64,000 nucleotides of DNA, from contig OZ246001.1 of the NCBI GenBank assembly GCA_965230295.1, positions 480,001 to 544,000 of the forward strand, given 5' to 3'. The stretch comes from Marinicella sp. Lineage in GTDB: Bacteria > Pseudomonadota > Gammaproteobacteria > Xanthomonadales > Marinicellaceae. This document shows, in pieces, positions 6,397 through 43,432 of this stretch (its first letter is position 1; each line of letters opens with the position of its first letter). A program made the translations under genes and the position numbers. Under the pieces are notes generated by a model, which saw nothing but the letters and a program-made list of their open reading frames with translations, made no database searches and was not told the DNA's origin.

Positions 6397-8899
<2,503 letters not shown>

Positions 8900-9062
8900 C
8901 ATTCGTGCTTTTAAATCCGAAAACTTAAACATCAAGCAGGCGGTGGGGGGTTTGAAGGTTCTCAAAAATATTTAACTTCAAGTTCACTCTTACCACCTTC
9001 ACAAACCTTGTGCTCAGCCTGTAATTCATCTAACATTAAATAATTATTAATGGAAAAACAGC

Positions 9063-9455
9063 ATGACTGACATCAACACAATACTCAAGCTTAATGGCCT
9101 CAATTGTTTGCTGTTTGGTTCTTTGTTTGTGTTCATTCCTGATTCCATCATTCCATTCTTAAGTTTAGACAATCCAATCCCTAAATGGGTGCTGTTGAGT
9201 TTGGGCGTGGGCTTAAATCTTTATGGCTTGTACTTATTGTGGTTAGGCGCCAAACATAAAGTCCCCCATCGATATGTTTTGTTCGTTGCATTTGGTGATT
9301 TTATGTGGGTTTTAGCAACCGTGGTATTGATCGTTATGAAAACCTGGATCACCACCATCAATGGCATGACGGCAGCTGGCTTGGTGGCCATTTTAGTGGG
9401 TTGGTTTGGCTGGTTACAGTTACAGTACTTTTTCAAAGAATCCAAGCAGCCTTAA
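9063..9455 (+). CDS. Hypothetical 4-TM membrane protein
   Basis: Hydrophobic helices; GGAAAA RBS-like sequence. Confidence 0.7.
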   Translation: MTDINTILKLNGLNCLLFGSLFVFIPDSIIPFLSLDNPIPKWVLLSLGVGLNLYGLYLLWLGAKHKVPHRYVLFVAFGDFMWVLATVVLIVMKTWITTINGMTAAGLVAILVGWFGWLQLQYFFKESKQP

Positions 9456-9465
9456 GTCCTTCATT

Positions 9466-9551
9466 GCGTTGGCTGAAGTCAACACCTAGACATGAATGTC
9501 CTTTAGCATAAGATCATTTTACTAATAGTGGAGCGTCGACATCAGTCGACG
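9466..9551. repeat. Degenerate REP palindromes (GTTGGCTGAAGTCAAC; GGAGCGTCGACATCAGTCGACG)
   Basis: Same architecture as the 5870-6337 REP family. Confidence 0.55.
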
Positions 9552-9591
9552 TAGAAGCTTAAAACAATTAGAGTTAATAAAAATAGAACAA

Positions 9592-9705
9592 CGTCATTCT
9601 GTGTCTAGACCACAGAATCCAGGTAGGTGATTTTCGGTTCTTCTCGGATATATAATTATGCCAAACTTGAACTGCCTGGATCCTACGATCAAGTCGTAGG
9701 ATGAC
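9592..9705. repeat. REPIN-like inverted doublet, relative of 6058-6194
   Basis: CGTCATTCTGTG-TCTAGA-CCACAGAATCCAGG ... CCTGGATCCTACGATCAAGTCGTAGGATGAC. Confidence 0.75.
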
Positions 9706-33275: not shown

Positions 33276-35435
33276 ATGACTCAAAAAAATAAGCCCATAA
33301 GCCCAACGTCTGACATCCCACTGAAGATCACCAAAACCCCCATGGTTATTCATGGCGACTCAGATTCTAAGCGTGCCGAAATTAAATCTCACTTCATCAA
33401 CACCTATGAAACTTATGAATGTTTGTTTGAATGCTTAAAGGATGATGAAGCTTACTACCAACAACCTGAACCGCTGCGTCATCCTTTGATATTTTATCTG
33501 GCACACACTGCAGTGTTTTTCATCAATAAATTAAGGGTGGCCAAAATCATAGAACACAATGTGGATGAAAGCATTGAATCCATGATGGCCATTGGGGTGG
33601 ATGAGATGTCTTGGGATGATTTGAATGAAGCCAATTATGATTGGCCAACAGTTGCCAAGGTTTATGAATACAGGCATAAAGTCAAAGCTTTGGTGCTTGA
33701 TTTGATTGATCAAATGCCTTTAACTTTACCCATCAATTGGGAGGATCCATTTTGGATCATCTTGATGGGTATTGAGCATGAACGGATCCATTTAGAAACC
33801 TCTTCTGTGTTGATCAGACAATTGGAGCTGAAATATGTGACCTGTTCAACTGATTGGCCACCTCACAACAAAGACCATGATGTGGTCAATAACCAACTGC
33901 TGAAAGTGCCTTCAGGCCCTGTTTCCCAAGGTCGCGAGATGCCTTCCGAAACCTATGGCTGGGACAACGAATACGGTCACTACTCTGAAGATGTGGCTGC
34001 GTTCAAAGCCGCTCAATATTTGGTTTCCAATTCCGAATTTTTGGCTTTCGTAGAAGATGGTGGCTACAAAGACCAACAATGGTGGACTGAAGAAGGCTGG
34101 CGATGGAAATGCTATAAAAAGGCAGAACACCCCACTTTTTGGCGTCAGCAGGATAATCAGTGGCTTTACCGCACCATGACTAGAGAAATAAACATGCCCT
34201 GGAGTTGGCCGGCCGATGTCAACTACTTGGAAGCCAAAGCTTTTTGTAATTGGCTGGCTGCCAGAACAGGCGAGCCCATCAGGCTGCCTACTGAAGCCGA
34301 GTGGCATCGACTGTATGAACACACCATGGGTGATCAACCTCGCTACCCCTTGTGGCAAGACACACCAGGCAACATAGAATTGTCTTATGCGGCTTCTTCT
34401 GTGCCAGTGGATCTATTCCTGTTCGGTGAACAACAGTTTGGTGATGTCATTGGTAATGTGTGGCAATGGACTGAAACCGCCATTGATGGTTTTGACGGTT
34501 TCAAAGTTCATCCGGCTTATGATGATTTTTCTGTGCCCACTTTTGATGGACAACACAATTTAATCAAAGGTGGCAGCTGGATCAGTACCGGCAATGAAGC
34601 ACACTTGGATTCACGGTATGCTTTTCGCCGACATTTTTTTCAACACGCAGGATTTAGATACGTAGAATCGGAGATAACAGTGGATCAAACATTCAATACA
34701 TACGAAACAGACGAACTCATTTCACAATACCTCGAGTTTCACTATGGTGGCGAGTATTTCGGGGTGCCCAATTTTCCCAAAGCTTGTATCGATGCCTTGA
34801 TTCCACATGTTGATTTAAGTCATAACAGCCGGGCATTGGATTTAGGTTGTGCTGTGGGCCGCAGTTCTTTTGAATTGGCCCGGTATTATGAGCATGTCGA
34901 TGCGCTTGATTTCTCAACCCGTTTCATCCGCAATGCGATCAATTTAGTGGATCATGGCGAAGTTAAATACATGATTCCCACTGAAGGTGAACTGACAGAA
35001 TTGAAGTCATTCAGCCTGGCGGATTTGGCTTTGGGCGAACAAGTCAAAAACATTGAATTTTCTCAAGGCGATGCCTGTAATTTAAAAGCTAAATACAGTG
35101 ATTATGATTTGATTTTTGCCGGCAACTTGATCGACCGTTTGTATCAACCCAAGCAATTTTTAACCAGCATCAAAGATCGCATCAAAACTGGCGGGTATTT
35201 GGTACTGACCTCACCCTACACATGGTTGGAAGAATTCACCGAAAAACAAAACTGGTTGGGTGGCATCAAAGTCAATGGCGAAAACGTCACCACCCTGGAT
35301 GCCTTAAAGACCATTTTAGGTCAAGATTTCGAACTGGTGTCCTTGCCTCAAGATGTGCCATTTGTGATCAGGGAAACAGCCAGGAAACACCAACATACAG
35401 TGGCCCAATTAAGCATTTGGAGAAAACGCAGTTAA
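33276..35435 (+). CDS. ovoA: 5-histidylcysteine sulfoxide synthase/methyltransferase (ovothiol)
   Basis: LRHPLIFYLAHTA, GVDEMSWDD, GIEHERIHLETS iron motif, FGE-like domain, FRRHFFQHAGFRY, C-terminal LDLGCAVGR methyltransferase. Confidence 0.95.
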   Translation: MTQKNKPISPTSDIPLKITKTPMVIHGDSDSKRAEIKSHFINTYETYECLFECLKDDEAYYQQPEPLRHPLIFYLAHTAVFFINKLRVAKIIEHNVDESIESMMAIGVDEMSWDDLNEANYDWPTVAKVYEYRHKVKALVLDLIDQMPLTLPINWEDPFWIILMGIEHERIHLETSSVLIRQLELKYVTCSTDWPPHNKDHDVVNNQLLKVPSGPVSQGREMPSETYGWDNEYGHYSEDVAAFKAAQYLVSNSEFLAFVEDGGYKDQQWWTEEGWRWKCYKKAEHPTFWRQQDNQWLYRTMTREINMPWSWPADVNYLEAKAFCNWLAARTGEPIRLPTEAEWHRLYEHTMGDQPRYPLWQDTPGNIELSYAASSVPVDLFLFGEQQFGDVIGNVWQWTETAIDGFDGFKVHPAYDDFSVPTFDGQHNLIKGGSWISTGNEAHLDSRYAFRRHFFQHAGFRYVESEITVDQTFNTYETDELISQYLEFHYGGEYFGVPNFPKACIDALIPHVDLSHNSRALDLGCAVGRSSFELARYYEHVDALDFSTRFIRNAINLVDHGEVKYMIPTEGELTELKSFSLADLALGEQVKNIEFSQGDACNLKAKYSDYDLIFAGNLIDRLYQPKQFLTSIKDRIKTGGYLVLTSPYTWLEEFTEKQNWLGGIKVNGENVTTLDALKTILGQDFELVSLPQDVPFVIRETARKHQHTVAQLSIWRKRS

Positions 35436-36536
35436 ATGAATTTCAAGCCATTCAAAATGGCGCAATTCAGTGCCCAGTGGACTCCAGGTAGCCTCCACAA
35501 CTTGCACAGCAGCAATCCCCAGCCCTGGACATGGGATGAACTGAGTGAGGTCGTCGAGACTGATCTAAACAGCCTACTTATCAAAACGCCCTTTGCCTAT
35601 GAACCGGTAGAGGGCAATCAAACCGTACGCGAACTGATCAGTCACCACTACCATTCAGGTTTGTGTGCTGCTGACATCACCCTGACTTCCGGGGCTCAAG
35701 AAGGGATTTTTCTGGTCATGCAGGCCTTGATCAATCCAGATGATCATGTGATCACTTTCAGCCCCTGTTTTGAACCACTGACTCAAGTAGCCATTGATGC
35801 AGGGGCGGAAGTGTCCATGCTGCCTTTGAATGAATCCAACGGCTGGTCAATCAACTGGGACAGGCTAAAAAGTAGCTTCAAGGATTCAACAAAGCTGGTG
35901 GTTATCAACTTCCCTCACAACCCGACAGGTGCTCACATCAGTCAAGCCGAACTGCTGAAACTGACCGCGCTTTGCGAACAGCACAATTGCTGGCTGTTTT
36001 CAGATGAAGTGTTCCGTGGTTTAGAACACCAATCCGCAGATCGCATCAGCAGTGCTGCTGACCTTTATGACAAGGCTGTATCGATGGGAGTGGTTTCTAA
36101 AGCATTGGCCTTGCCCGGTGTCAGACTCGGTTGGTTGTCATGTCAGGATGATGGCTTGCACCAACGGATTAAGACCATCAAGTCACATTTATCCATATGT
36201 CAAAGCAGTTTAGATGCACAATTGTGTCAAGCCATCATTCCTCACAGTGAAAAAATCTGGCAAAGGAGTATCGACATCATCAACGGCAATAAATCTTATC
36301 TGGCGGCTCTATTGGCAAACAATCAGGCATTCAAATGGCATCTACCAAAGGCTTCGGCCACCGCATTCATAGAGTGTCTAGATTCTGAGGCCACAGCATT
36401 ATGCCAAAATTGGGCAGAACAGCACCGCATGTTGTTGTTACCCAATGAAGTGTTCCTAACTGATGTCTCTGGTTTCAGAATGACGCTGGGATCTCAGAAC
36501 AATCGACCCATGTACGATCACATTTTTAAGATTTAG
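35436..36536 (+). CDS. PLP-dependent class I/II aminotransferase-fold enzyme; candidate ovothiol C-S lyase (OvoB role)
   Basis: NFPHNPTG, SDEVF, SKALALPGVRLGW (PLP lysine); ATG directly abuts the ovoA stop. Confidence 0.8.
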   Translation: MNFKPFKMAQFSAQWTPGSLHNLHSSNPQPWTWDELSEVVETDLNSLLIKTPFAYEPVEGNQTVRELISHHYHSGLCAADITLTSGAQEGIFLVMQALINPDDHVITFSPCFEPLTQVAIDAGAEVSMLPLNESNGWSINWDRLKSSFKDSTKLVVINFPHNPTGAHISQAELLKLTALCEQHNCWLFSDEVFRGLEHQSADRISSAADLYDKAVSMGVVSKALALPGVRLGWLSCQDDGLHQRIKTIKSHLSICQSSLDAQLCQAIIPHSEKIWQRSIDIINGNKSYLAALLANNQAFKWHLPKASATAFIECLDSEATALCQNWAEQHRMLLLPNEVFLTDVSGFRMTLGSQNNRPMYDHIFKI

Positions 36537-38328
36537 CAGCTGTCACTTCATGCATGATTTCGTCATAAGCAACCACTTCATTGCGACCTTTATTTTTGGC
36601 CTCAAACAAGGCCAAATCAGCATGGGTTAACAGCATAGAAATGCGGTGACCTGACAACAAGGTGTTGGTCACTCCAAAACTGGCCGTGATGTCAAAAGCG
36701 GCACCTGATTCACTGCAGTCCATCTGCTCAATGGCATGCCTCATTTTTTCCATCAAGCGCATCATTTCAAGGTGTGAAATACCTGGTGAAACGATGCTGA
36801 ACTCTTCACCACCTAGACGAGCAACGAGAATGTCTTGATCCGCCACTTCTTCACAAGTCAAAATCACTTGTTTCAACACCCAGTCACCCACCAGATGCCC
36901 AAATTGATCATTGACATTTTTAAAATGATCCAAATCCATGATCGCCAAATTGACCGGCTGGTTTTTGGCTTTATGGGTTTCTAACATGTCCTTGATCTTT
37001 TCTTCAAAAGCTTTGCGGGTGAACACCTGGGTCAAGTGGTCTATTTCTGCCACTTCTTTGAAATAATCATGCCGTTTTTTGATTTTATAGGTCCACACGC
37101 CCAACAACAGCAACAAACTGGCAATCAACAACATCATCAGCTGTTGTTTCTTGGTGGTTTCGGCTGACAACTTATTTTCCAATTCCAACAACTTGTTGTT
37201 TTGATTCAATTGATCAATTTGAAGTTCCTGCGCCAAATTAGCATGTTTAACCCTGTAATAGGCCACTTGAGTTGCCAACTTGCGTTCATAGATGGATTTT
37301 TCAATGCTGTTTTTTTGGGCCAAATAATGGTAAGCGGGTTGCATAGAATTACCTTCCAGGCTCAGTTGAATCAAAACATTCAACGCCAAAACCAATTGTT
37401 CAGATTCACCGATACTGGCATTCTCCTCGACTGCCAACACACCAAAAGCCTGGGCTTTTTCATTCAGATCAGCCATCCAATAGATGTGAGCCAGCAAGGC
37501 GTGGTAGTAAACCCTGATGTTCTTAAAGTTGGTTTTCTCAACATCATCTGCCAATGATTCCAGAACGGTCACTGCTTTCATGGCTTCTTCTGGATCAGAT
37601 TGTGCTTTATCGGTAAATTGATAGCGGATTTGGTCAAACCTTAAAAATAGCGATGAAATGTAATTATCAACTTGTTCACAGCGGTCAATGGCTGCAGTGA
37701 TTTCATCATTAAATGCTTCGCCTTTACCCTGACGCATTAAAATCCGATACTTATTAAAACCTCCCATGCATTTATCGTCCTCAGAATAATCTCCTGTCAA
37801 CAGCAATTCAGAGTACTTCAGTGCTATATCATCTTGATTCATCAACCGGTAAGAAATCGCCGCCACATTATTGGTCAATGATCTGAGGTATTTATCTTCG
37901 GTGTTTTCCGTTATTTGAATGGCTGTATTTAAATTGTTCAGCGCTTTCTCGAAATCGCCAGTAATGACTTGTAAATTGGCTGTGAACTGAAGCACTCGAG
38001 CCAAGTACTCAGGGGATTCACAAATGGTAACAATTTCATTGAGTTTATTGATTGAACTGGCGTAGTCTCCTATGAAACTTTCACGGTAAATGACTAAAAA
38101 TTCATAATGACACCGTTCATCAGGACTCATCACTGATACATGGTTTGCCAGTTCAGCCAAGCCAGCAGAAAAGCCAGTTTGATCGACTTTCCTTATCTTT
38201 TCTAATTCCAGCAACCGATGTTTAAATCCATTATCTTCAGCGTTCATGGTTTCTTGTGACCATGAAGACATGGCTGGACCAAGAATCAAACTCAGGCTAA
38301 GAAGCAGTTTAAGAAATAATTTATCCAT
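36526..38328 (-). CDS. Diguanylate cyclase with periplasmic helical (TPR-like) sensor, paralog 2
   Basis: Signal peptide, helical domain, coiled coil, one TM, IDHLT...DLDHFKNVNDQFGH..GD, RLGGEEF, ADLALFEAK..GRN. Confidence 0.92.
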   Translation of the reverse strand: MDKLFLKLLLSLSLILGPAMSSWSQETMNAEDNGFKHRLLELEKIRKVDQTGFSAGLAELANHVSVMSPDERCHYEFLVIYRESFIGDYASSINKLNEIVTICESPEYLARVLQFTANLQVITGDFEKALNNLNTAIQITENTEDKYLRSLTNNVAAISYRLMNQDDIALKYSELLLTGDYSEDDKCMGGFNKYRILMRQGKGEAFNDEITAAIDRCEQVDNYISSLFLRFDQIRYQFTDKAQSDPEEAMKAVTVLESLADDVEKTNFKNIRVYYHALLAHIYWMADLNEKAQAFGVLAVEENASIGESEQLVLALNVLIQLSLEGNSMQPAYHYLAQKNSIEKSIYERKLATQVAYYRVKHANLAQELQIDQLNQNNKLLELENKLSAETTKKQQLMMLLIASLLLLLGVWTYKIKKRHDYFKEVAEIDHLTQVFTRKAFEEKIKDMLETHKAKNQPVNLAIMDLDHFKNVNDQFGHLVGDWVLKQVILTCEEVADQDILVARLGGEEFSIVSPGISHLEMMRLMEKMRHAIEQMDCSESGAAFDITASFGVTNTLLSGHRISMLLTHADLALFEAKNKGRNEVVAYDEIMHEVTAAKS

Positions 38329-38385
38329 AAAATAAAAGTGCCAATGAATCACCAATGGCACTCGGTAAAAGTATTATTTCAACAA

Positions 38386-38553
38386 TCAATCTTCGTCGTC
38401 ATCATCTCCTGGGTGATGGGCGCATTTAAGTTCATTGTTTGACGACAACAATTGTTTTATCTGTACTTTTGAAAGTTGATGAGAAATTTGATTGTTTTGG
38501 TGAACCGAATCAGTTTGTCCGATAGATTCCAATATTTTCACGAGTTTATTCAT
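38386..38553 (-). CDS. 55-aa putative RiPP (borosin-associated) precursor peptide 2; not in ORF track
   Basis: Hand translation MNKLVKILESIGQTDSVHQNNQISHQLSKVQIKQLLSSNNELKCAHHPGDDDDED; RBS AAGAGG 4 nt before ATG; paralog of 41023-41202. Confidence 0.85.
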   Translation of the reverse strand: MNKLVKILESIGQTDSVHQNNQISHQLSKVQIKQLLSSNNELKCAHHPGDDDDED

Positions 38554-38583
38554 AACACCTCTTTTTATAAGTTATTAAGGAAA

Positions 38584-38610
38584 TGTTGTCATCCCCTTTA
38601 AATGACAACA
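38584..38610 (-). promoter_or_regulatory. Hairpin upstream of peptide 2 (possible CsrA/RsmA or operator site)
   Basis: Minus strand TGTTGTCAT-TTAAAGGGG-ATGACAACA: perfect 9-bp stem with AGGGGA. Confidence 0.45.
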
Positions 38611-38630
38611 AAGCTATTCTAACATCAATT

Positions 38631-39185
38631 CTAACCAGAATACGACCCCATCCAAGCTGTCTTTTCGATAAACCATTCTTGGGTCTTTTTTTGATGGACG
38701 CCATGTTCAATGATTTTCCCTTTTTGCATTTTTAAGCGCATATTTGCTGTATTTGCAGCCACATTATCAGCCTGACAAAAAGCAATGATGGTTTCTAAGT
38801 TCAACGCTGTAAAACCATGCGCCATCATCAACTGTTTGGCATGGTGGGCCATTCTTTGACGCCGATAGGCTGATGAAATCATCACACCAATGGCTGCGAT
38901 CATTCGGCTTTCAGGCTTAAACCATGTCAAACCAATGATACCCATATTGACATCATCAATATGGCGCTTAATCACATAAGTGAGGTGATGAGGCTGATCA
39001 TCAGACATCTCTTCAATGGTCTTCTTCAGCTGTTTTTCACATTGGCTGCAGGTCAAAGGTTCACCAATAAACTGCATGACTTCTTGGTTACCATAAATTT
39101 GAACAAAAAAGTCTAAATCGCCTTGGTCTACGGGCTTCAGAAAAATGGGATACTTATTGCTGGTGATGTTGGGTCGAACAATCAA
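38631..39185 (-). CDS. RimJ/RimL-type GNAT acyltransferase 2
   Basis: LKPV...DLDFFVQIY.N.EVMQFIG, IGVMI...YRRQRMA, DNVAA; start uncertain (TTG near 39185, just after the cyclase stop). Confidence 0.8.
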   Translation of the reverse strand: MIVRPNITSNKYPIFLKPVDQGDLDFFVQIYGNQEVMQFIGEPLTCSQCEKQLKKTIEEMSDDQPHHLTYVIKRHIDDVNMGIIGLTWFKPESRMIAAIGVMISSAYRRQRMAHHAKQLMMAHGFTALNLETIIAFCQADNVAANTANMRLKMQKGKIIEHGVHQKKTQEWFIEKTAWMGSYSG

Positions 39186-39192
39186 AGGTTTC

Positions 39193-41007
39193 TCAATCTT
39201 TGTTAACCCTTTGAATGGTCTTGAACTTAATGACTTGATTACGACCTTGTTTCTTGGCTTCAAACAATGCCACATCAGCGTGGGTTAACAACAAAGGCAA
39301 AGAATAACCAGATGTGATGGATGAGGTGTATCCAAAACTGGCTGTGACTGAAAGTTCAGCGCCAGATTCATCACAATCCAGCGTTTCTACAGCAGAACGC
39401 ATCTGCTCCAATTTGGCTTCCATGACATCACATTCTACTTTTGGAAACACGATACAAAATTCTTCGCCACCCAAGCGCGCCAATATCATGTCTTCTTCTA
39501 CAAATTCCTTGATGGCATAGACCACATTTTTCAGCACCCAATCACCAATCAAATGTCCATGGGTGTCATTAACTTTCTTAAAGTGGTCCAAATCCATGAT
39601 GGCCATCTGAATGGGCAGTTTATGATCCTGACAGTAATTCAATTGCACTTTGACCTGTTCTTCAAAAGCTTTCCTGGTCAACACTTTGGTTAAATGATCT
39701 ATTTCTGAAACACCTTTGAAATAATCATGTTTCTTCTTGATTCGCACCAACCACAATGCCATGAAACCCAACAAGGTCAAAATCAACAAAATGACCAGGC
39801 GTTGGTTGTTGGTTTCTTGCTTAGCCAGTTTTTTCTCCAGCTCCAGAACTTCCTTCTGTCGATTCAACTGTTCAATTTCAAACACCTTGGCCAAATTCGA
39901 ATGCTTGACGGTCATGAAAGCCATTTGTTTGGCTTGTGACTGGTCATACATTTTAAGTTCCGCTTCGTTTTTTCGGTTCAAATAATCGTATGACTTAACA
40001 AAGTCACCGCGAGATTTAGAAATGTTTTCTAACACTTCCAGTGCCATGATTAACTGTTCTGTATAACCCAGGTTTTCATTTAAGCTGATGGTTTTTTCTC
40101 CATGTACCATCGCTTCTTCATAATCACCAACCAAGTAGGCAATTTTGGCTTCAATGGCTTTGAAATTTACTTTGATGTTTTTATAGGGTGTGGCATCAAT
40201 TTCTGCCTTCATTGACTCTACCAAATCAGCTATATAGGCCATTTCACCTGCTGCCATTCCACCTGAGGAAAGGGTTCTTTTTATATTGTCTAAAACAATC
40301 GATTGGGCATACAAAGCGTTTCCACTTTCCTTGCAATTCTTTGCAATTTCTAAGATTGTTTCTAAATCTGGGGCATCTTGGTCACCATCCAGATGATACA
40401 TATTTTTACTGTATTGAACCCGGCACAGGTTTTCATCATTGGGCTCAAGGTTGTAATGAAGTTCACTGTATTTAACACTGAGTTCTTTTTGATCTAATAA
40501 GTTATAAACCACAGACGCTCCAGAATATGCGATTAATTTAGATTTTTTATCAACCGTTTGTTCTGCGTTTTGAATGGCGTTATCGACATGGTACGAGGCT
40601 TTTTTATAGTCTCCACTGATGGCACTGATGTTGGAAATCAAGGCGTCAATTCGAATCCTTGCCCGTAAATCATCACATAGAGGAATGATTTTTTCGAGGT
40701 CTGATACTGCCTGTAAAGATTCACCGGCAAATGCCGTTTGGTAGGCCCGAAGGAACTGGTAATGGCAAACTTGGTAAGCCGACATTTGCGATAATTTGTT
40801 TTCCAGCAAATCCAAGCCAGCAATGAATTCGTTGTGGTTACTCAATCTGATGTTTTCTAAGCGCAGAATTTCTTCAGTTAAATGAGGTGGTTCTCCTGTA
40901 GAGTCTGGGTCAGCTTGTGCCAAAGTAATTTGAGGGCACAACAAAACAAAGGACATGAATAGTAACCATGTCCTTATTGTTTTATTTGAGTTTATATTTA
41001 ACAACAA
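39193..41007 (-). CDS. Diguanylate cyclase with periplasmic helical (TPR-like) sensor, paralog 1
   Basis: Signal peptide, helical domain, one TM, DLDHFKKVNDTHGH..GD, RLGGEEF, ADVALFEAKKQGRN. Confidence 0.92.
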   Translation of the reverse strand: MLLNINSNKTIRTWLLFMSFVLLCPQITLAQADPDSTGEPPHLTEEILRLENIRLSNHNEFIAGLDLLENKLSQMSAYQVCHYQFLRAYQTAFAGESLQAVSDLEKIIPLCDDLRARIRIDALISNISAISGDYKKASYHVDNAIQNAEQTVDKKSKLIAYSGASVVYNLLDQKELSVKYSELHYNLEPNDENLCRVQYSKNMYHLDGDQDAPDLETILEIAKNCKESGNALYAQSIVLDNIKRTLSSGGMAAGEMAYIADLVESMKAEIDATPYKNIKVNFKAIEAKIAYLVGDYEEAMVHGEKTISLNENLGYTEQLIMALEVLENISKSRGDFVKSYDYLNRKNEAELKMYDQSQAKQMAFMTVKHSNLAKVFEIEQLNRQKEVLELEKKLAKQETNNQRLVILLILTLLGFMALWLVRIKKKHDYFKGVSEIDHLTKVLTRKAFEEQVKVQLNYCQDHKLPIQMAIMDLDHFKKVNDTHGHLIGDWVLKNVVYAIKEFVEEDMILARLGGEEFCIVFPKVECDVMEAKLEQMRSAVETLDCDESGAELSVTASFGYTSSITSGYSLPLLLTHADVALFEAKKQGRNQVIKFKTIQRVNKD

Positions 41008-41022
41008 TAGACTGCTATCAGA

Positions 41023-41202
41023 TCACTCTTCGTCATCGTCATCTGGTAACAACAAGCAAATCAGATCATTGTTTTGCAATTTAATCTTGTTGAACGCTCG
41101 TTCCTGAATATTCATGCCTTGAATCATTTGTTTTACAGAATCATTTTGATGAATGGATTGGGTTTGTCCAATTTGTTCCAGCAGTTTTACATTGAATTTC
41201 AT
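41023..41202 (-). CDS. 59-aa putative RiPP (borosin-associated) precursor peptide 1
   Basis: MKFNVKLLEQIGQTQSIHQND...NNDLICLLLPDDDDEE; RBS AAGAGGA before ATG at 41202; directly downstream of the borosin methyltransferase. Confidence 0.85.
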   Translation of the reverse strand: MKFNVKLLEQIGQTQSIHQNDSVKQMIQGMNIQERAFNKIKLQNNDLICLLLPDDDDEE

Positions 41203-41238
41203 TGATAGTCCTCTTTTTAAGTTTTTTAAAGATTGCTC

Positions 41239-41256
41239 TTGTCCCCTATAGGACAA
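41239..41256 (-). promoter_or_regulatory. Hairpin upstream of peptide 1
   Basis: Minus strand TTGTCC-TATAGG-GGACAA; contains AGGGGA; mirrors 38584-38610. Confidence 0.4.
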
Positions 41257-41266
41257 AAAAATCATA

Positions 41267-42046
41267 TCATGAATGCTTAATTCGCAACAACCTATTTATT
41301 TTATCAATGTCTTTTTGCTTTTCTTGTCCTGGTGGGATCACTAAAGTGCTTTTTAATGTAACCTCTGCACAAGCTAAGTCCTTGAGCGCCAATGATTTTA
41401 TCAATGGCTTTTCTATGGGCAAGACAGCACATTCATAAATGATCACTTGGTGGTCATCAGGGTAAGTCTCCAACAACATATCAACCAACAGTTGTTTGGC
41501 TTCTTCACTGGTCTCAAATACTTTCAAAGATCTGTCACCAGCCAAAGCTATCTGCCACAAAACCAAATAAGCTGTGGGATCAAAAACGGTTTGATTGAAC
41601 ATGAAATTATTGGCTTCAAAATGCGCAATACCATAGGTTCCAGGATCTATTCCCAAATCTGCATACAAACAATCTTCGGCTGAAACACCCGGTTCCATGT
41701 GGGCTTTGAAACCTTCTTTTCTGGCCATTTCAATGGTTTGGTGTGGAGTCAAAGCAAACACCCCTGGGTGGCCATAAAAAGCACCACAAACTTTTTTCCC
41801 GGCCCTCACTTCCTTCATGATGGTCTCGTTCATTTCCTGGTATGTTTGTTTGCGCGATTTTCCTTCAGCATACAATGACTGTAAACTGATGACATTCTCA
41901 TTCATGGTACCCACCCATTCTTCCACCAATAGGTTAGATGCCGCTACAAAAACCACATCAGCCTGTTCAATAAAATTCCTCGATAAAGGGGTGATGTGAG
42001 CGCCCAAAGTCATGCCTAAGCCCACGTTGACTAAACTGCCTTTCAT
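41267..42046 (-). CDS. Split-borosin peptide alpha-N-methyltransferase (SonM/OphA-like, tetrapyrrole-methylase fold)
   Basis: GSLVNVGLG, LQSLYAEGKSRKQTYQEM, AFYGHPGVF, EPGVSAEDCLYADLGIDPG, LVLWQI, YPDDHQVIIYE, STLVIPP; 259 aa with no fused core. Confidence 0.92.
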   Translation of the reverse strand: MKGSLVNVGLGMTLGAHITPLSRNFIEQADVVFVAASNLLVEEWVGTMNENVISLQSLYAEGKSRKQTYQEMNETIMKEVRAGKKVCGAFYGHPGVFALTPHQTIEMARKEGFKAHMEPGVSAEDCLYADLGIDPGTYGIAHFEANNFMFNQTVFDPTAYLVLWQIALAGDRSLKVFETSEEAKQLLVDMLLETYPDDHQVIIYECAVLPIEKPLIKSLALKDLACAEVTLKSTLVIPPGQEKQKDIDKINRLLRIKHS

Positions 42047-42540
42047 TGATTCAATTTCTCCATTGTAAAATCCCACCTGACAAGGTTGAGATGTTTCTTT
42101 GCTGTTGATGTATTTTTGACTGGGACAAAGCCCATGTTTTGATAACTGATACTCGCTGCTTTGTTATCTGCATGGATATAAACGGTGCAGAGCTTCGCGG
42201 GAAACAGGCGCCGCACTTGACGCATTGCGTTCATTTGAGCCCACTTGCATACCCCTTTGTTTTGATAGGCAGGCACCACGATCATGCCTGATTCAATGCT
42301 TTCATTATGGGGGTACCAGTGCATACTTAACATGCCTGCCCGGTGCAGACCGTCAGTCGTCTCGATGATTTGATAATCCGCTGTTTGTCGTTCGATCTCT
42401 TGCAACATTTTATGGCACAATTGTGCGGCTATGTCAGGCGACACAAGGTCACCAATGTGTCGCATGATGAGCGGATCTTGATATAAATCACTGACGAATG
42501 ACTGGTCTGATTCGGCCAATCGGCGCAATTGGTATGTCAT
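42043..42540 (-). CDS. RimJ/RimL-type GNAT acyltransferase 1
   Basis: LRRLAESD....LYQDP.IMRHIG, ESGMIVVPAYQNKG, DNKAA...YQNMGF; ATGA overlap with the methyltransferase. Confidence 0.85.
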   Translation of the reverse strand: MTYQLRRLAESDQSFVSDLYQDPLIMRHIGDLVSPDIAAQLCHKMLQEIERQTADYQIIETTDGLHRAGMLSMHWYPHNESIESGMIVVPAYQNKGVCKWAQMNAMRQVRRLFPAKLCTVYIHADNKAASISYQNMGFVPVKNTSTAKKHLNLVRWDFTMEKLNQ

Positions 42541-42616
42541 GAAAATTACATTTCCTTTTGAGGTCTCAGCTAAAACAGGCTTATGTTACTATAAACCCAA
42601 AAATCTCACACAACTT

Positions 42617-43432
42617 ATGGCTCAAATATACTTAATACTTTTCACTGTGTTGCTGGCGATCATCGTCATAATGGGGTTGATAAAATGGCGCAAGCAAAGC
42701 AAAAGACGCGCCATATACCGGCTTGAAACGCCTGAAACTTGGGTGGCGTACATCATCAATAACGTGGCACTTTACTCAGTGCTGCCATCGCACCTACAAC
42801 GAGAGCTGTTGGGCCATGTGAATATTTTTCTGTCTGAAAAATATTTTTCCGGCCATGCCGGCCTGGAGGTGACTGATGAGATGCGTGTCACCATCGCTGC
42901 CCAGGCCTGTCTGCTGCTGTTGAACCGAAAAACCAATTACTACCCCCACTTAAAAACCATCCTGATTTATCCGGCTGGATTTAAAAATCCCAATCACGAG
43001 AAACCAGGCCACCATCTGGGTGAATCTTGGGTCCGGGGGCCAGTGGTGCTGTCTTGGGCAGATGCCAAACACGGTGGCAGCAACGCCAAAGATGGCAGTA
43101 ATGTGGTGATCCACGAATTTGCTCATCAATTAGATCAAGTGGATGGTGCCGGAGATGGCAGGCCAGTCATCGAGGGCAACCAACTCAGAACTTGGGGCAA
43201 AGTCATGAGCAAAGAGTTTAAAAACCTCATTGTCAAAGCCAAAATGCGCAGAAAAACATTTTTTGACCATTACGGTGCCACCAATCCAGCAGAATTTTTT
43301 GCGGTGACTTCTGAGCATTTTTTTGAGCAGCCGCATACCTTCAAACGCAAACACGCTGAACTGTATGATTTATTGATGAAATATTACCGTTTGGACCCAG
43401 CCAGTTGGACCTCCCCTATTAAACAACGTTAA
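42617..43432 (+). CDS. MtfA-like zinc peptidase (M90)
   Basis: IAAQACLLLL, GESW.RGPVVLSW, NVVIHEFAHQLD, YGATNPAEFFAV.SEHFFEQP; N-terminal TM. Confidence 0.9.
   Translation: MAQIYLILFTVLLAIIVIMGLIKWRKQSKRRAIYRLETPETWVAYIINNVALYSVLPSHLQRELLGHVNIFLSEKYFSGHAGLEVTDEMRVTIAAQACLLLLNRKTNYYPHLKTILIYPAGFKNPNHEKPGHHLGESWVRGPVVLSWADAKHGGSNAKDGSNVVIHEFAHQLDQVDGAGDGRPVIEGNQLRTWGKVMSKEFKNLIVKAKMRRKTFFDHYGATNPAEFFAVTSEHFFEQPHTFKRKHAELYDLLMKYYRLDPASWTSPIKQR

Follow-up and report, generated by a model that had tools for sequence, protein, structure and literature searches.

A second, shortened SonA/SamA1-type candidate precursor in a type IV split borosin cluster of Marinicella sp.

Introduction

Two split borosin systems of Shewanella are the closest described counterparts of the locus considered here. 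In S. oneidensis, the binding domain of the precursor SonA has been described with five helices (Imani et al., 10.1101/2021.12.24.474128), and the product, shewanellamide A, retains its two methylated residues (PMC10549244). In Shewanella amazonensis, SamM1 methylates the precursor SamA1 once, at Phe52, and the A1 peptidase SamP (shewasin A) cuts SamA1 between Phe53 and Pro54, efficiently only when the precursor is methylated (Lee et al., bioRxiv 10.1101/2024.01.09.574750). SamP prefers bulky hydrophobic P1 and P2 residues, an unmethylated acidic peptide starting at SamA1 Pro54 has been detected in cell extracts, and a PF13302 GNAT is present in the SamA1 cluster (bioRxiv 10.1101/2024.01.09.574750). 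In this study, we analysed a stretch of 64,000 nucleotides from Marinicella sp. (GenBank assembly GCA_965230295.1, contig OZ246001.1, positions 480,001 to 544,000; hereafter the window) and, within it, a gene for a 55-residue peptide, pepB. The gene is best described as that of a second precursor of SonA/SamA1 type, in shortened form, within a type IV split borosin cluster; its neighbouring paralog is referred to as pepA.

Borosin methyltransferases are defined by YGHP and DCLYAD motifs, and it has already been published that GGDEF proteins occur in 56% and PF13302 proteins in about 26% of split borosin clusters (Imani et al., 10.1101/2021.12.24.474128). Clusters with several precursors are also known: 3064 precursors have been counted in 2596 clusters, one of which holds 11 (Lee et al., bioRxiv 10.1101/2024.01.09.574750). 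What the end products are and what they do has been posed as a question (Imani et al., 10.1101/2021.12.24.474128), and the native role of bacterial borosins has been called elusive (PMC10549244). Our literature search found no paper testing a functional link between borosins and cyclic dimeric GMP (c-di-GMP). The Marinicella peptides may already be listed in the supplementary datasets of the two bioRxiv preprints.

Results

The pepB gene and its relatives

pepB is a genuine, conserved gene under purifying selection. An initial annotation of the window had proposed a hidden 55-residue open reading frame (ORF) with a ribosome-binding site as a second precursor paralog, and this is borne out by its identity to pepA, by its relatives and by its Shine-Dalgarno-like motif. 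BLASTP aligned pepB with pepA (59 residues) at 22 identities in 55 positions (40%, E 3e-12); the blocks VK.LE.IGQT.S.HQN and NN.L.C...P.DDD.E are common to both in the pairwise alignment. A profile of the two peptides found these two copies only in their own 4.0-Mb single-contig genome (next E about 0.6) and relatives in 32 of 44 same-family genomes (E <= 0.01). Many same-family genomes carry two or three copies, spaced 2.6-3 kb. For the family alignment, 40 of the 43 distinct peptide hits in the fetched loci were used; L036:10489-10668, L012 and L055 were omitted because no ATG lies near the match start. A Shine-Dalgarno-like motif was seen upstream of 31 of the 40 aligned peptides, and frame and stop position are preserved across all of them. 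Relative to the closest orthologue (genome G004), the proportion of nonsynonymous differences (pN) was 0.12 and that of synonymous differences (pS) was saturated. The ratio of nonsynonymous to synonymous substitution rates (dN/dS) was 0.11-0.21 in those family comparisons with computable dS, and not near 1.

A HMMER scan of 1.84 billion representative proteins returned 87 clusters at E <= 0.001, 70 of them at E <= 1e-10. Nearly all of the matched cluster proteins are 53-99 residues long and the matches are near-full-length; the peptide family is narrow yet well populated. The pepB sequence is already in the protein collection, and therefore gene callers do detect it; it was hidden solely from the ORF track of the initial annotation. 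The public orthologues WP_157892959.1 and WP_395374813.1 are named 'hypothetical protein', and no model in Pfam or NCBIfam matched either pepA or pepB. At present the 87-cluster family is unnamed or labelled 'hypothetical protein'.

Sequence anatomy of the peptide family

Met1, Gly12 and Cys44 are invariant in the 40-peptide alignment, and Leu8, Glu9, Ser16, Pro48 and Asp51 are kept in at least 90% of the sequences. Mean column entropy is 1.55 bits over residues 1-20 as against 2.75 bits over residues 21-40, in agreement with the conserved N-terminal leader noted at the outset. It is 1.36 bits for residues 41-44, 2.84 bits for the triplet between Cys and Pro, and 1.12 bits from Pro48 to residue 53. 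The initial annotation had described a variable core: the three residues between Cys and Pro are indeed the most variable, but they are not hypervariable. The triplet occurs as lineage-specific types, each of which is kept from species to species and goes with the clade of the adjacent sensor.

Among 119 distinct family peptides, 100 have Cys-x3-Pro in the C-terminal half. The triplet is fully hydrophobic in 49 of these, mixed in 43, and of the C-x-H-x-P-G subtype, to which pepB belongs, in eight; the first His of this subtype is kept in 8/8, and the second His is not conserved. The remaining 19 of the 119 have no Cys-x3-Pro motif. A few of these 19 have Ser, Ala or Gly instead of Cys (P0018, P0048, P0069 and P0080), and the Arenimonas and Dyella precursors have Met or Ala at this position.

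Repeated units were observed in three relatives. In the metagenomic peptide P0070 an Asp-Leu-Lys-Cys/Ser-x-His-x-Ala-Pro-like unit is repeated five times; P0062, a multi-core relative, has a repeated Asn-Asp-Gln-Val-Pro-Ala-Leu-Phe unit; and in a Rhodanobacter precursor (L073:4533-4799) Val-Cys-Cys-Met-Met-Leu-Pro is present twice. P0070 and the Rhodanobacter precursor confirm the Cys-x3-Pro segment as the business end of the peptide. The AlphaFold model of pepB (predicted local distance difference test, pLDDT, 68; predicted template modelling score, pTM, 0.28) has helices at 3-14, 17-26 and 29-38, followed by a disordered tail.

The methyltransferase and the link to SonA

pepB clusters with a discrete borosin alpha-N-methyltransferase, which is a feature of type IV precursors. 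A genome search found a single such enzyme. Its match to SonM (PDB 7ltc_A) has an E value of 6.8e-72, those to the OphMA-type enzymes of fungi are at about 1e-45, and the columns of the YGHP and DCLYAD motifs are invariant in an alignment of 21 methyltransferase sequences.

The link between pepB and SonA was obtained in two steps. The named-genome loci used for this purpose are the best 80 of 578 confirmed loci found with the methyltransferase alignment; they are the most query-like and no random sample. From these, 25 ORFs with the leader motif downstream of the methyltransferase were picked by eye, and 20 were aligned, with the short ORFs of L116, L119, L128, L122 and L126 omitted. The resulting profile of longer precursors (n=20; Shewanella, Arenimonas, Rhodanobacter and others) matches chains of SonA across their first 53-57 residues, with E values between 5.9e-4 and 3.1e-3; among these chains are 8t1s_B (E 5.9e-4) and 7ltc_B (E 7.8e-4). 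The 40-peptide profile was aligned with the longer-precursor profile by hhalign at 97.2% probability (E 3.9e-11), and both the leader and the Cys-x3-Pro-acidic end were included in this alignment. A likeness of the first helix to the SonA binding domain, suggested in the initial annotation, is therefore recovered through the intermediate profile but not by a direct SonA match. Based on this two-step link, we read the Marinicella peptides as shortened members of the SonA-type precursor family, an assignment which profile comparison supports indirectly.

A complex of the methyltransferase (21-row alignment) with pepB (40-row alignment) was modelled with ESMFold2, together with three controls. 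The complex scored 0.76 (runs 0.76, 0.78 and 0.76) vs 0.00 for the best of the three controls; 58 of 80 complexes with solved structures attained the score mark, as did 2 of 110 mismatched pairs, counts that apply here only roughly since our own alignments were used. The runs share at least 95% of contacts, and partner pLDDT was at least 74. The modelled interface comprises, on pepB, residues 1-18 (the first helix and the Gly-Gln loop, with the most conserved leader positions) and 39-51 (around Cys44-Pro48) and, on the enzyme, residues 100-101 in the YGHP motif among others. The model supports, without demonstrating, docking of the leader and the C-terminal segment of pepB on the methyltransferase. 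Because SonM-SonA complexes have been solved, the score may reflect likeness to the solved complex.

Gene cluster in the window

The genes of the cluster are arranged on the minus strand in the order GNAT1, TP_methylase, pepA, GGDEF-A, GNAT2, pepB and GGDEF-B (Table 1). The methyltransferase is encoded 2.7 kb upstream of pepB on the same strand, with pepA, GGDEF-A and GNAT2 between them. GNAT1 and GNAT2 are distant paralogs (22% identity, E 1e-5), and both cyclases carry GGEEF. As listed, the GNAT2 ORF has 83 bases (39193-39275) in common with the 3' end of GGDEF-A, and its Pfam domain begins at residue 45; translation probably starts further downstream, at a codon other than ATG. The likely start of GGDEF-B is the ATG at 38328. 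No exporter was found within the cluster. Promoter and terminator predictions in 36300-42800 were not above shuffles (12 vs 15.8 and 4 vs 5.5, respectively), and the hairpin between GNAT2 and pepB is likewise not above chance, with 4 terminator-like sites in the region vs 5.5 expected from shuffles. This hairpin could separate transcripts or stabilise the peptide mRNA.

Table 1. Features of the pepB cluster in the window and A1 peptidase genes elsewhere in the genome.
Feature	Position	Strand	Basis or remark
pepB, 55-residue precursor peptide	38386-38553	-	ATG start; ORF and comparison with paralog and relatives
pepB segments	38386-38553	-	Residues 1-38 three-helix leader; Glu41-Leu-Lys-Cys44-Ala-His-His47 recognition; Pro48-Gly-Asp-Asp-Asp-Asp-Glu-Asp55 acidic tail
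Shine-Dalgarno-like AAGAGGTG	38556-38563 (plus-strand numbering)	-	2 bases upstream of pepB ATG
GGDEF-B: signal peptide, periplasmic TPR superhelix, one transmembrane helix, GGEEF diguanylate cyclase	36526-38361	-	Directly downstream of pepB
Hairpin with 11-bp stem, terminator-like consensus match, between GNAT2 and pepB	38584-38610	-	Weak
GNAT2, PF13302 (RimJ/RimL-type) acetyltransferase	38631-39275	-	Directly upstream of pepB
GGDEF-A, paralog of GGDEF-B	39193-41007	-	38% identity over 585 residues
pepA, 59-residue paralog, hydrophobic recognition segment Cys-Leu-Leu-Leu-Pro	41023-41202	-	Sequence comparison
Borosin alpha-N-methyltransferase (SonM homologue; YGHPGVF, EDCLYAD motifs)	41267-42076	-	Only one in genome
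GNAT1, PF13302 acetyltransferase	42043-42540	-	Upstream of methyltransferase
M90 (MtfA-like) metallopeptidase, N-terminal hydrophobic segment	42539-43432	+	Divergent; syntenic neighbour within genus
A1 pepsin-like peptidase	G000:C1:2087758-2088999	-	Both Asp-Ser/Thr-Gly motifs
A1 pepsin-like peptidase	G000:C1:206934-208151	+	Both Asp-Ser/Thr-Gly motifs

In the genus, synteny places the locus between the M90 gene and a gene for a pyridoxal phosphate (PLP) enzyme, which converges on the GGDEF-B side of the cluster and is a conserved convergent neighbour of GGDEF-B throughout the genus. This gene belongs to an ovothiol pair adjoining the cluster (33276-36536, plus strand), which consists of a 719-residue OvoA, scoring 662.7 bits against TIGR04344 (cut-off 400) and 333.4 bits against TIGR04345 (cut-off 170), and the class I/II PLP enzyme, which could be its C-S lyase partner. 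A link between the ovothiol genes and the Cys/His peptide was considered and set aside: the genes are convergent and no supporting evidence was found. The M90 peptidase, considered as a maturase because of its position beside the cluster in the genus, is a less likely candidate: it is missing from the loci of the family's other genera, and plain synteny is more likely.

Conservation of the peptide-cyclase unit

Twenty larger loci from the same family were fetched and homologues were mapped, the counts including the window. The basic unit in family loci is GNAT, methyltransferase, peptide and GGDEF. A GGDEF gene of this type stands directly after the peptide ORF, on the same strand, in 30/30 cases (window and 20 family loci). 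GNAT2 is directly upstream of all seven genomic C-x-H-x-P-G peptides (7/7), and the GNAT-peptide-GGDEF unit of pepB is an old duplicate of the neighbouring one.

Numbers of peptides and methyltransferases vary among relatives. Methyltransferase matches were found in 33 of 44 family genomes, and in 12 of the 32 genomes with a peptide, a single methyltransferase match goes with two or three peptide matches (these being matches, not strict copy numbers). Genome G020 combines three peptide-GGDEF units with one methyltransferase; a second methyltransferase is retained in the second unit of G022 and of G005. A C-x-H-x-P-G peptide is the sole precursor in G024 and G018, with the order methyltransferase, GNAT, peptide and GGDEF, which gives independent support for this subtype as a substrate.

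A second GGDEF gene without a peptide is present in G012 and G008. The positions concerned are L043 (G012:C10) 8877-9094 and L051 (G008:C18) 9467-9637; only 58-137 bases lie between the peptide-less GGDEF gene and the gene before it, and that of G012 falls within the clade of pepB-type sensors. In both genomes the peptide appears to have been lost and the sensor retained.

The named-genome loci include M. meishanensis, M. sediminis, Marinicella sp. W31, Shewanella, Arenimonas, Rhodanobacter, Lysobacter, Alteromonas and Thalassotalea. A peptide was detectable in 74 of these best 80, and the gene following their 89 peptide ORFs encodes a GGDEF protein in 77 cases, another peptide in five and a methyltransferase in two; the stretch ends in the other five.

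The TPR-GGDEF cyclase

GGDEF-B matches PF00990 at E 7.8e-35 and TIGR00254 at 128 bits, and its Pfam TPR_12 match is below the cut-off (27.0 vs 30.1). Its GG(D/E)EF motif is intact, it has a single transmembrane helix, and its N-terminal domain is TPR-like. The N-terminal 394 residues were modelled with pLDDT 90.8 and pTM 0.82 as an all-helical superhelix with a long helix leading to the membrane. Foldseek returned 38 matches to this sensor model at E <= 0.001. The top matches are TPR-peptide complexes of LGN (E 1.9e-6), and the list also contains two Rap proteins, each together with its pheromone, namely RapJ (4gyo_A; E 7.5e-5, TMq 0.58) and the Rap of phage phi3T, as well as NprR (5dbk_B; TMq 0.58). 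TPR folds resemble one another in general, and the modelled likeness to peptide-binding TPRs is only a lead for peptide binding.

For the sensor alignment, on which the model was built, 48 of 99 BLAST-detected homologous domains were taken, with duplicates removed and an otherwise arbitrary choice. Two cysteines (residues 187 and 217 from the ATG at 38328; 37147-38328, minus strand) are invariant in these 48 domains, which come from many genera, and may form a disulfide or reactive pair. A quick maximum-likelihood tree was built from 28 sensor domains, comprising the Marinicella-family rows and GGDEF-A of the window; 20 rows from other genera were excluded, and the L051 and L052 sensors are absent from the alignment. 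All six C-x-H-x-P-G partners fall, together with one peptide-less gene, into one clade (Shimodaira-Hasegawa-like approximate likelihood ratio test, SH-aLRT, 99). Its sister clade (99) holds the hydrophobic types and divides further into a Val-Leu-Phe group of three species and a Leu/Met-Leu/Ile-Leu group of five. The triplet type follows sensor lineage despite the methyltransferase being shared between modules of one genome. Co-inheritance of adjacent genes would give the same pattern, and recognition is not thereby proven.

Predicted processing and A1 peptidases

In the initial annotation the acidic tail was taken as the follower in a leader-core-follower layout. The conservation of the tail stands; its assignment probably has to be inverted, with the tail as the released peptide, because SamA1 is cut before Pro and its acidic tail is released. 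Mapping onto SamA1 predicts for pepB methylation at His46, a cut between His47 and Pro48 and release of an eight-residue tail, and for pepA release of a seven-residue tail. pepA (Leu-Leu-Pro-Asp4) has a SamA1-type bulky hydrophobic pair before Pro. pepB is mildly unusual in its very short leader and tail and in having a conserved His where methylation is predicted.

Bacteria rarely have A1 peptidases. PF00026 found two intact genes in the window's genome and none in 14 control genomes (0/14). The two peptidases, of 414 and 417 residues, share 35% identity and are both encoded far from the cluster. A third A1 fragment with two stop codons (2078849-2079058, minus strand), 9 kb from the first gene, is probably a pseudogene remnant. 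In other genomes, A1 peptidase homologues are directly beside the methyltransferase in 25 of the best 80 named loci and beside the cluster in family genomes G012, G038, G014, G011 and G027. Two genomes (G013 and G017; 81% and 76% complete) have an A1 peptidase but no clear peptide. A pairing of A1 paralogs with peptide types was considered and rejected: two peptides stand against a single peptidase in G004, G009, G005 and G022, and G020, with three peptides, has no peptidase at all.

Discussion

A second precursor served by one methyltransferase

On balance we favour a reading in which pepB is a translated type IV split borosin precursor, the second of two paralogs, that is methylated in trans, matures in a SamA1-like manner and forms a unit with GGDEF-B; we hold it to be fairly probable as a whole. 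The data show a real gene under constraint, its membership of the family, a conserved context and the presence of the methyltransferase and of the peptidases. Beyond this we infer that the peptide is methylated in trans, which residue is methylated, where the cut falls and how a peptide product might be linked to the cyclase. The three-helix leader of pepB, a putative shortened borosin-binding domain, would dock on the single SonM-like methyltransferase, which would modify one or two backbone amides in Cys44-Ala-His-His47, most likely that of His46, two residues ahead of Pro48, by analogy with SamA1. One of the two cytosolic pepsin-like A1 peptidases would then recognise the methylated site and cut between His47 and Pro48, freeing a short poly-acidic tail starting at Pro48, which the adjacent GNAT may modify further. 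The duplicated peptide-GGDEF modules beside one methyltransferase suggest that both peptides are served by the same enzyme, on which pepA and pepB would then both depend.

Several observations weigh against this reading. As regards the SonA relationship, neither a profile of two nor one of 40 Marinicella peptides reached SonA among PDB sequences at E <= 10, and Foldseek gave no match at E <= 10 with the pepB model, which is short and of moderate confidence. This single-chain model also has three helices, compared to the five described for SonA. As regards methylation, no methyltransferase is encoded in module B of the window. As regards cleavage, the His-His-Pro-Gly-Asp4 end of pepB has no SamA1-type bulky hydrophobic pair before Pro, and with His-His at P1 and P2, A1 cleavage is less secure for pepB than for pepA. 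An A1 peptidase was found in only 17 of 44 family genomes, and 17 of the 32 peptide-bearing genomes, including G020 with its three peptides, have no A1 match; an A1 peptidase is therefore no universal requirement. Nor is the SamA1 scheme the sole precedent, given that shewanellamide A keeps its methylated residues (PMC10549244).

The role of the cyclase is a separate matter. It is possible, and we put it forward tentatively, that each precursor and the TPR-GGDEF protein following it form a cognate signal-receptor pair, with the processed product being read by the periplasmic TPR groove. The signal could be the acidic tail or a fragment with the methylated triplet. Such pairing is consistent with the GGDEF gene following the peptide in 30/30 and 77/89 cases, with sensor clades that map one-to-one onto triplet types, and with a sensor domain that is itself a conserved family, has two invariant cysteines and has peptide-binding TPRs as its nearest folds.

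Alternative explanations

The same triplet pattern bears on a different reading of the peptide, which we regard as rather unlikely: Cys-x-x-x-Pro would be a retained core, the acidic tail a follower or solubiliser, and the Cys-x-His subtype metal-binding. The conservation of triplet type per module lineage, with the methyltransferase shared, suggests a module-specific reader of the triplet. Cys is invariant in the 40 aligned peptides, Cys-x-His is kept in 8/8 of the subtype, and the S. oneidensis system offers both a product that keeps two methylated residues and a cation efflux pump in its cluster (PMC10549244). However, the closer relatives are of the x-x-x-Pro-Ala-Glu-Asp type, with SamA1 cut before Pro and its acidic peptide found in cells (bioRxiv 10.1101/2024.01.09.574750). 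Moreover, Cys is replaced in P0018, P0048, P0069, P0080, Arenimonas and Dyella, and the second His of pepB is not a conserved residue.

pepB might alternatively be no longer methylated, and act unmodified, acetylated by GNAT2 only, or as a competitor for the methyltransferase. That module B of the window is without a methyltransferase fits this idea, as does the second module of G022 and G005, which keeps its own enzyme and indicates that a dedicated one exists in some lineages. We consider it improbable in view of Leu8, Glu9, Gly12 and Gln13, the residues in modelled contact with the enzyme, which are the most conserved in the family. The sole precursors of this subtype in G024 and G018 stand beside the sole methyltransferase, and 12 genomes combine one enzyme match with two or three peptide matches.

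Somewhat less probable still is a cytoplasmic role, in which the peptide would regulate, or be regulated by, the adjacent cyclase in a complex with the methyltransferase and there would be no secreted product. The conserved, family-specific part of the cyclase is its periplasmic TPR domain, pointing to a periplasmic ligand. The proposal draws on the nearly universal peptide-then-GGDEF order, on type X borosins, in which the methyltransferase is fused to a TPR-TM-GGDEF C-terminus (Imani et al., 10.1101/2021.12.24.474128), on the lack of an exporter within the cluster and on the cytosolic location of Shewasin D (bioRxiv 10.1101/2024.01.09.574750). Finally, a chance reading frame, which the shortness of pepB and its lack of a Pfam or NCBIfam family might suggest, is already refuted by the conservation of frame, start and stop and by purifying selection across genomes.

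Meaning of the locus

The locus adds little to borosin chemistry, being one more precursor of a described class. Mildly unusual are the module without a dedicated methyltransferase and the strict one-to-one pairing of peptide and TPR-GGDEF protein. It does, however, provide a compact natural experiment, in which a single methyltransferase is accompanied by two or three diverged pairs of peptide and cyclase and the peptides are short. If precursor and cyclase were indeed cognate pairs, split borosins would be autocrine or quorum-type signals setting c-di-GMP levels, and modules A and B of the window, or the three of G020, would be separate channels with one common methyltransferase.

Comparison with described systems

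SonA/SonM of Shewanella oneidensis is the founding type IV split borosin (PDB 7ltc, PMC8429565, PMC10549244). Its methyltransferase is clearly homologous to that of the window, the gene order methyltransferase, precursor and GGDEF is the same (PMC10549244), and the first helix and Gly-Gln loop of the leader align through the intermediate profile. In contrast to the Marinicella peptides, SonA has a core without the Cys-x3-Pro-acidic motif, and its product keeps the methylated residues (PMC10549244); no cation efflux pump is present in the Marinicella cluster.

The SamA1/SamM1/SamP system resembles the locus in its separate SonM-like methyltransferase, in an N-terminal binding domain, putative in pepB, followed by a short segment, Pro and an acidic tail, in the PF13302 GNAT of the cluster and in the PF00026 peptidases of the genome. 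SamA1-shaped precursors from four other Shewanella species align with the Marinicella leader and tail, SamA1 itself not being in the comparison. The Marinicella peptides are shorter (53-84 vs about 72-107 residues) and have no middle helices, and the tails of the window peptides are only seven to eight residues long, whereas the SamA1-type tail is long and acidic. Before Pro, pepB has His-His where SamA1 has Phe-Phe, and Gly follows the Pro in pepB. The Marinicella peptidases also differ in being encoded far from the cluster.

On the side of the cyclase, the best structural neighbours of the sensor, RRNPP-type receptors (Rap, NprR) and LGN, hold an extended peptide in their groove. The likeness is one of fold only, at 10-15% identity, and the Marinicella domain differs from these receptors in being periplasmic with a GGDEF output, rather than a cytoplasmic regulator.

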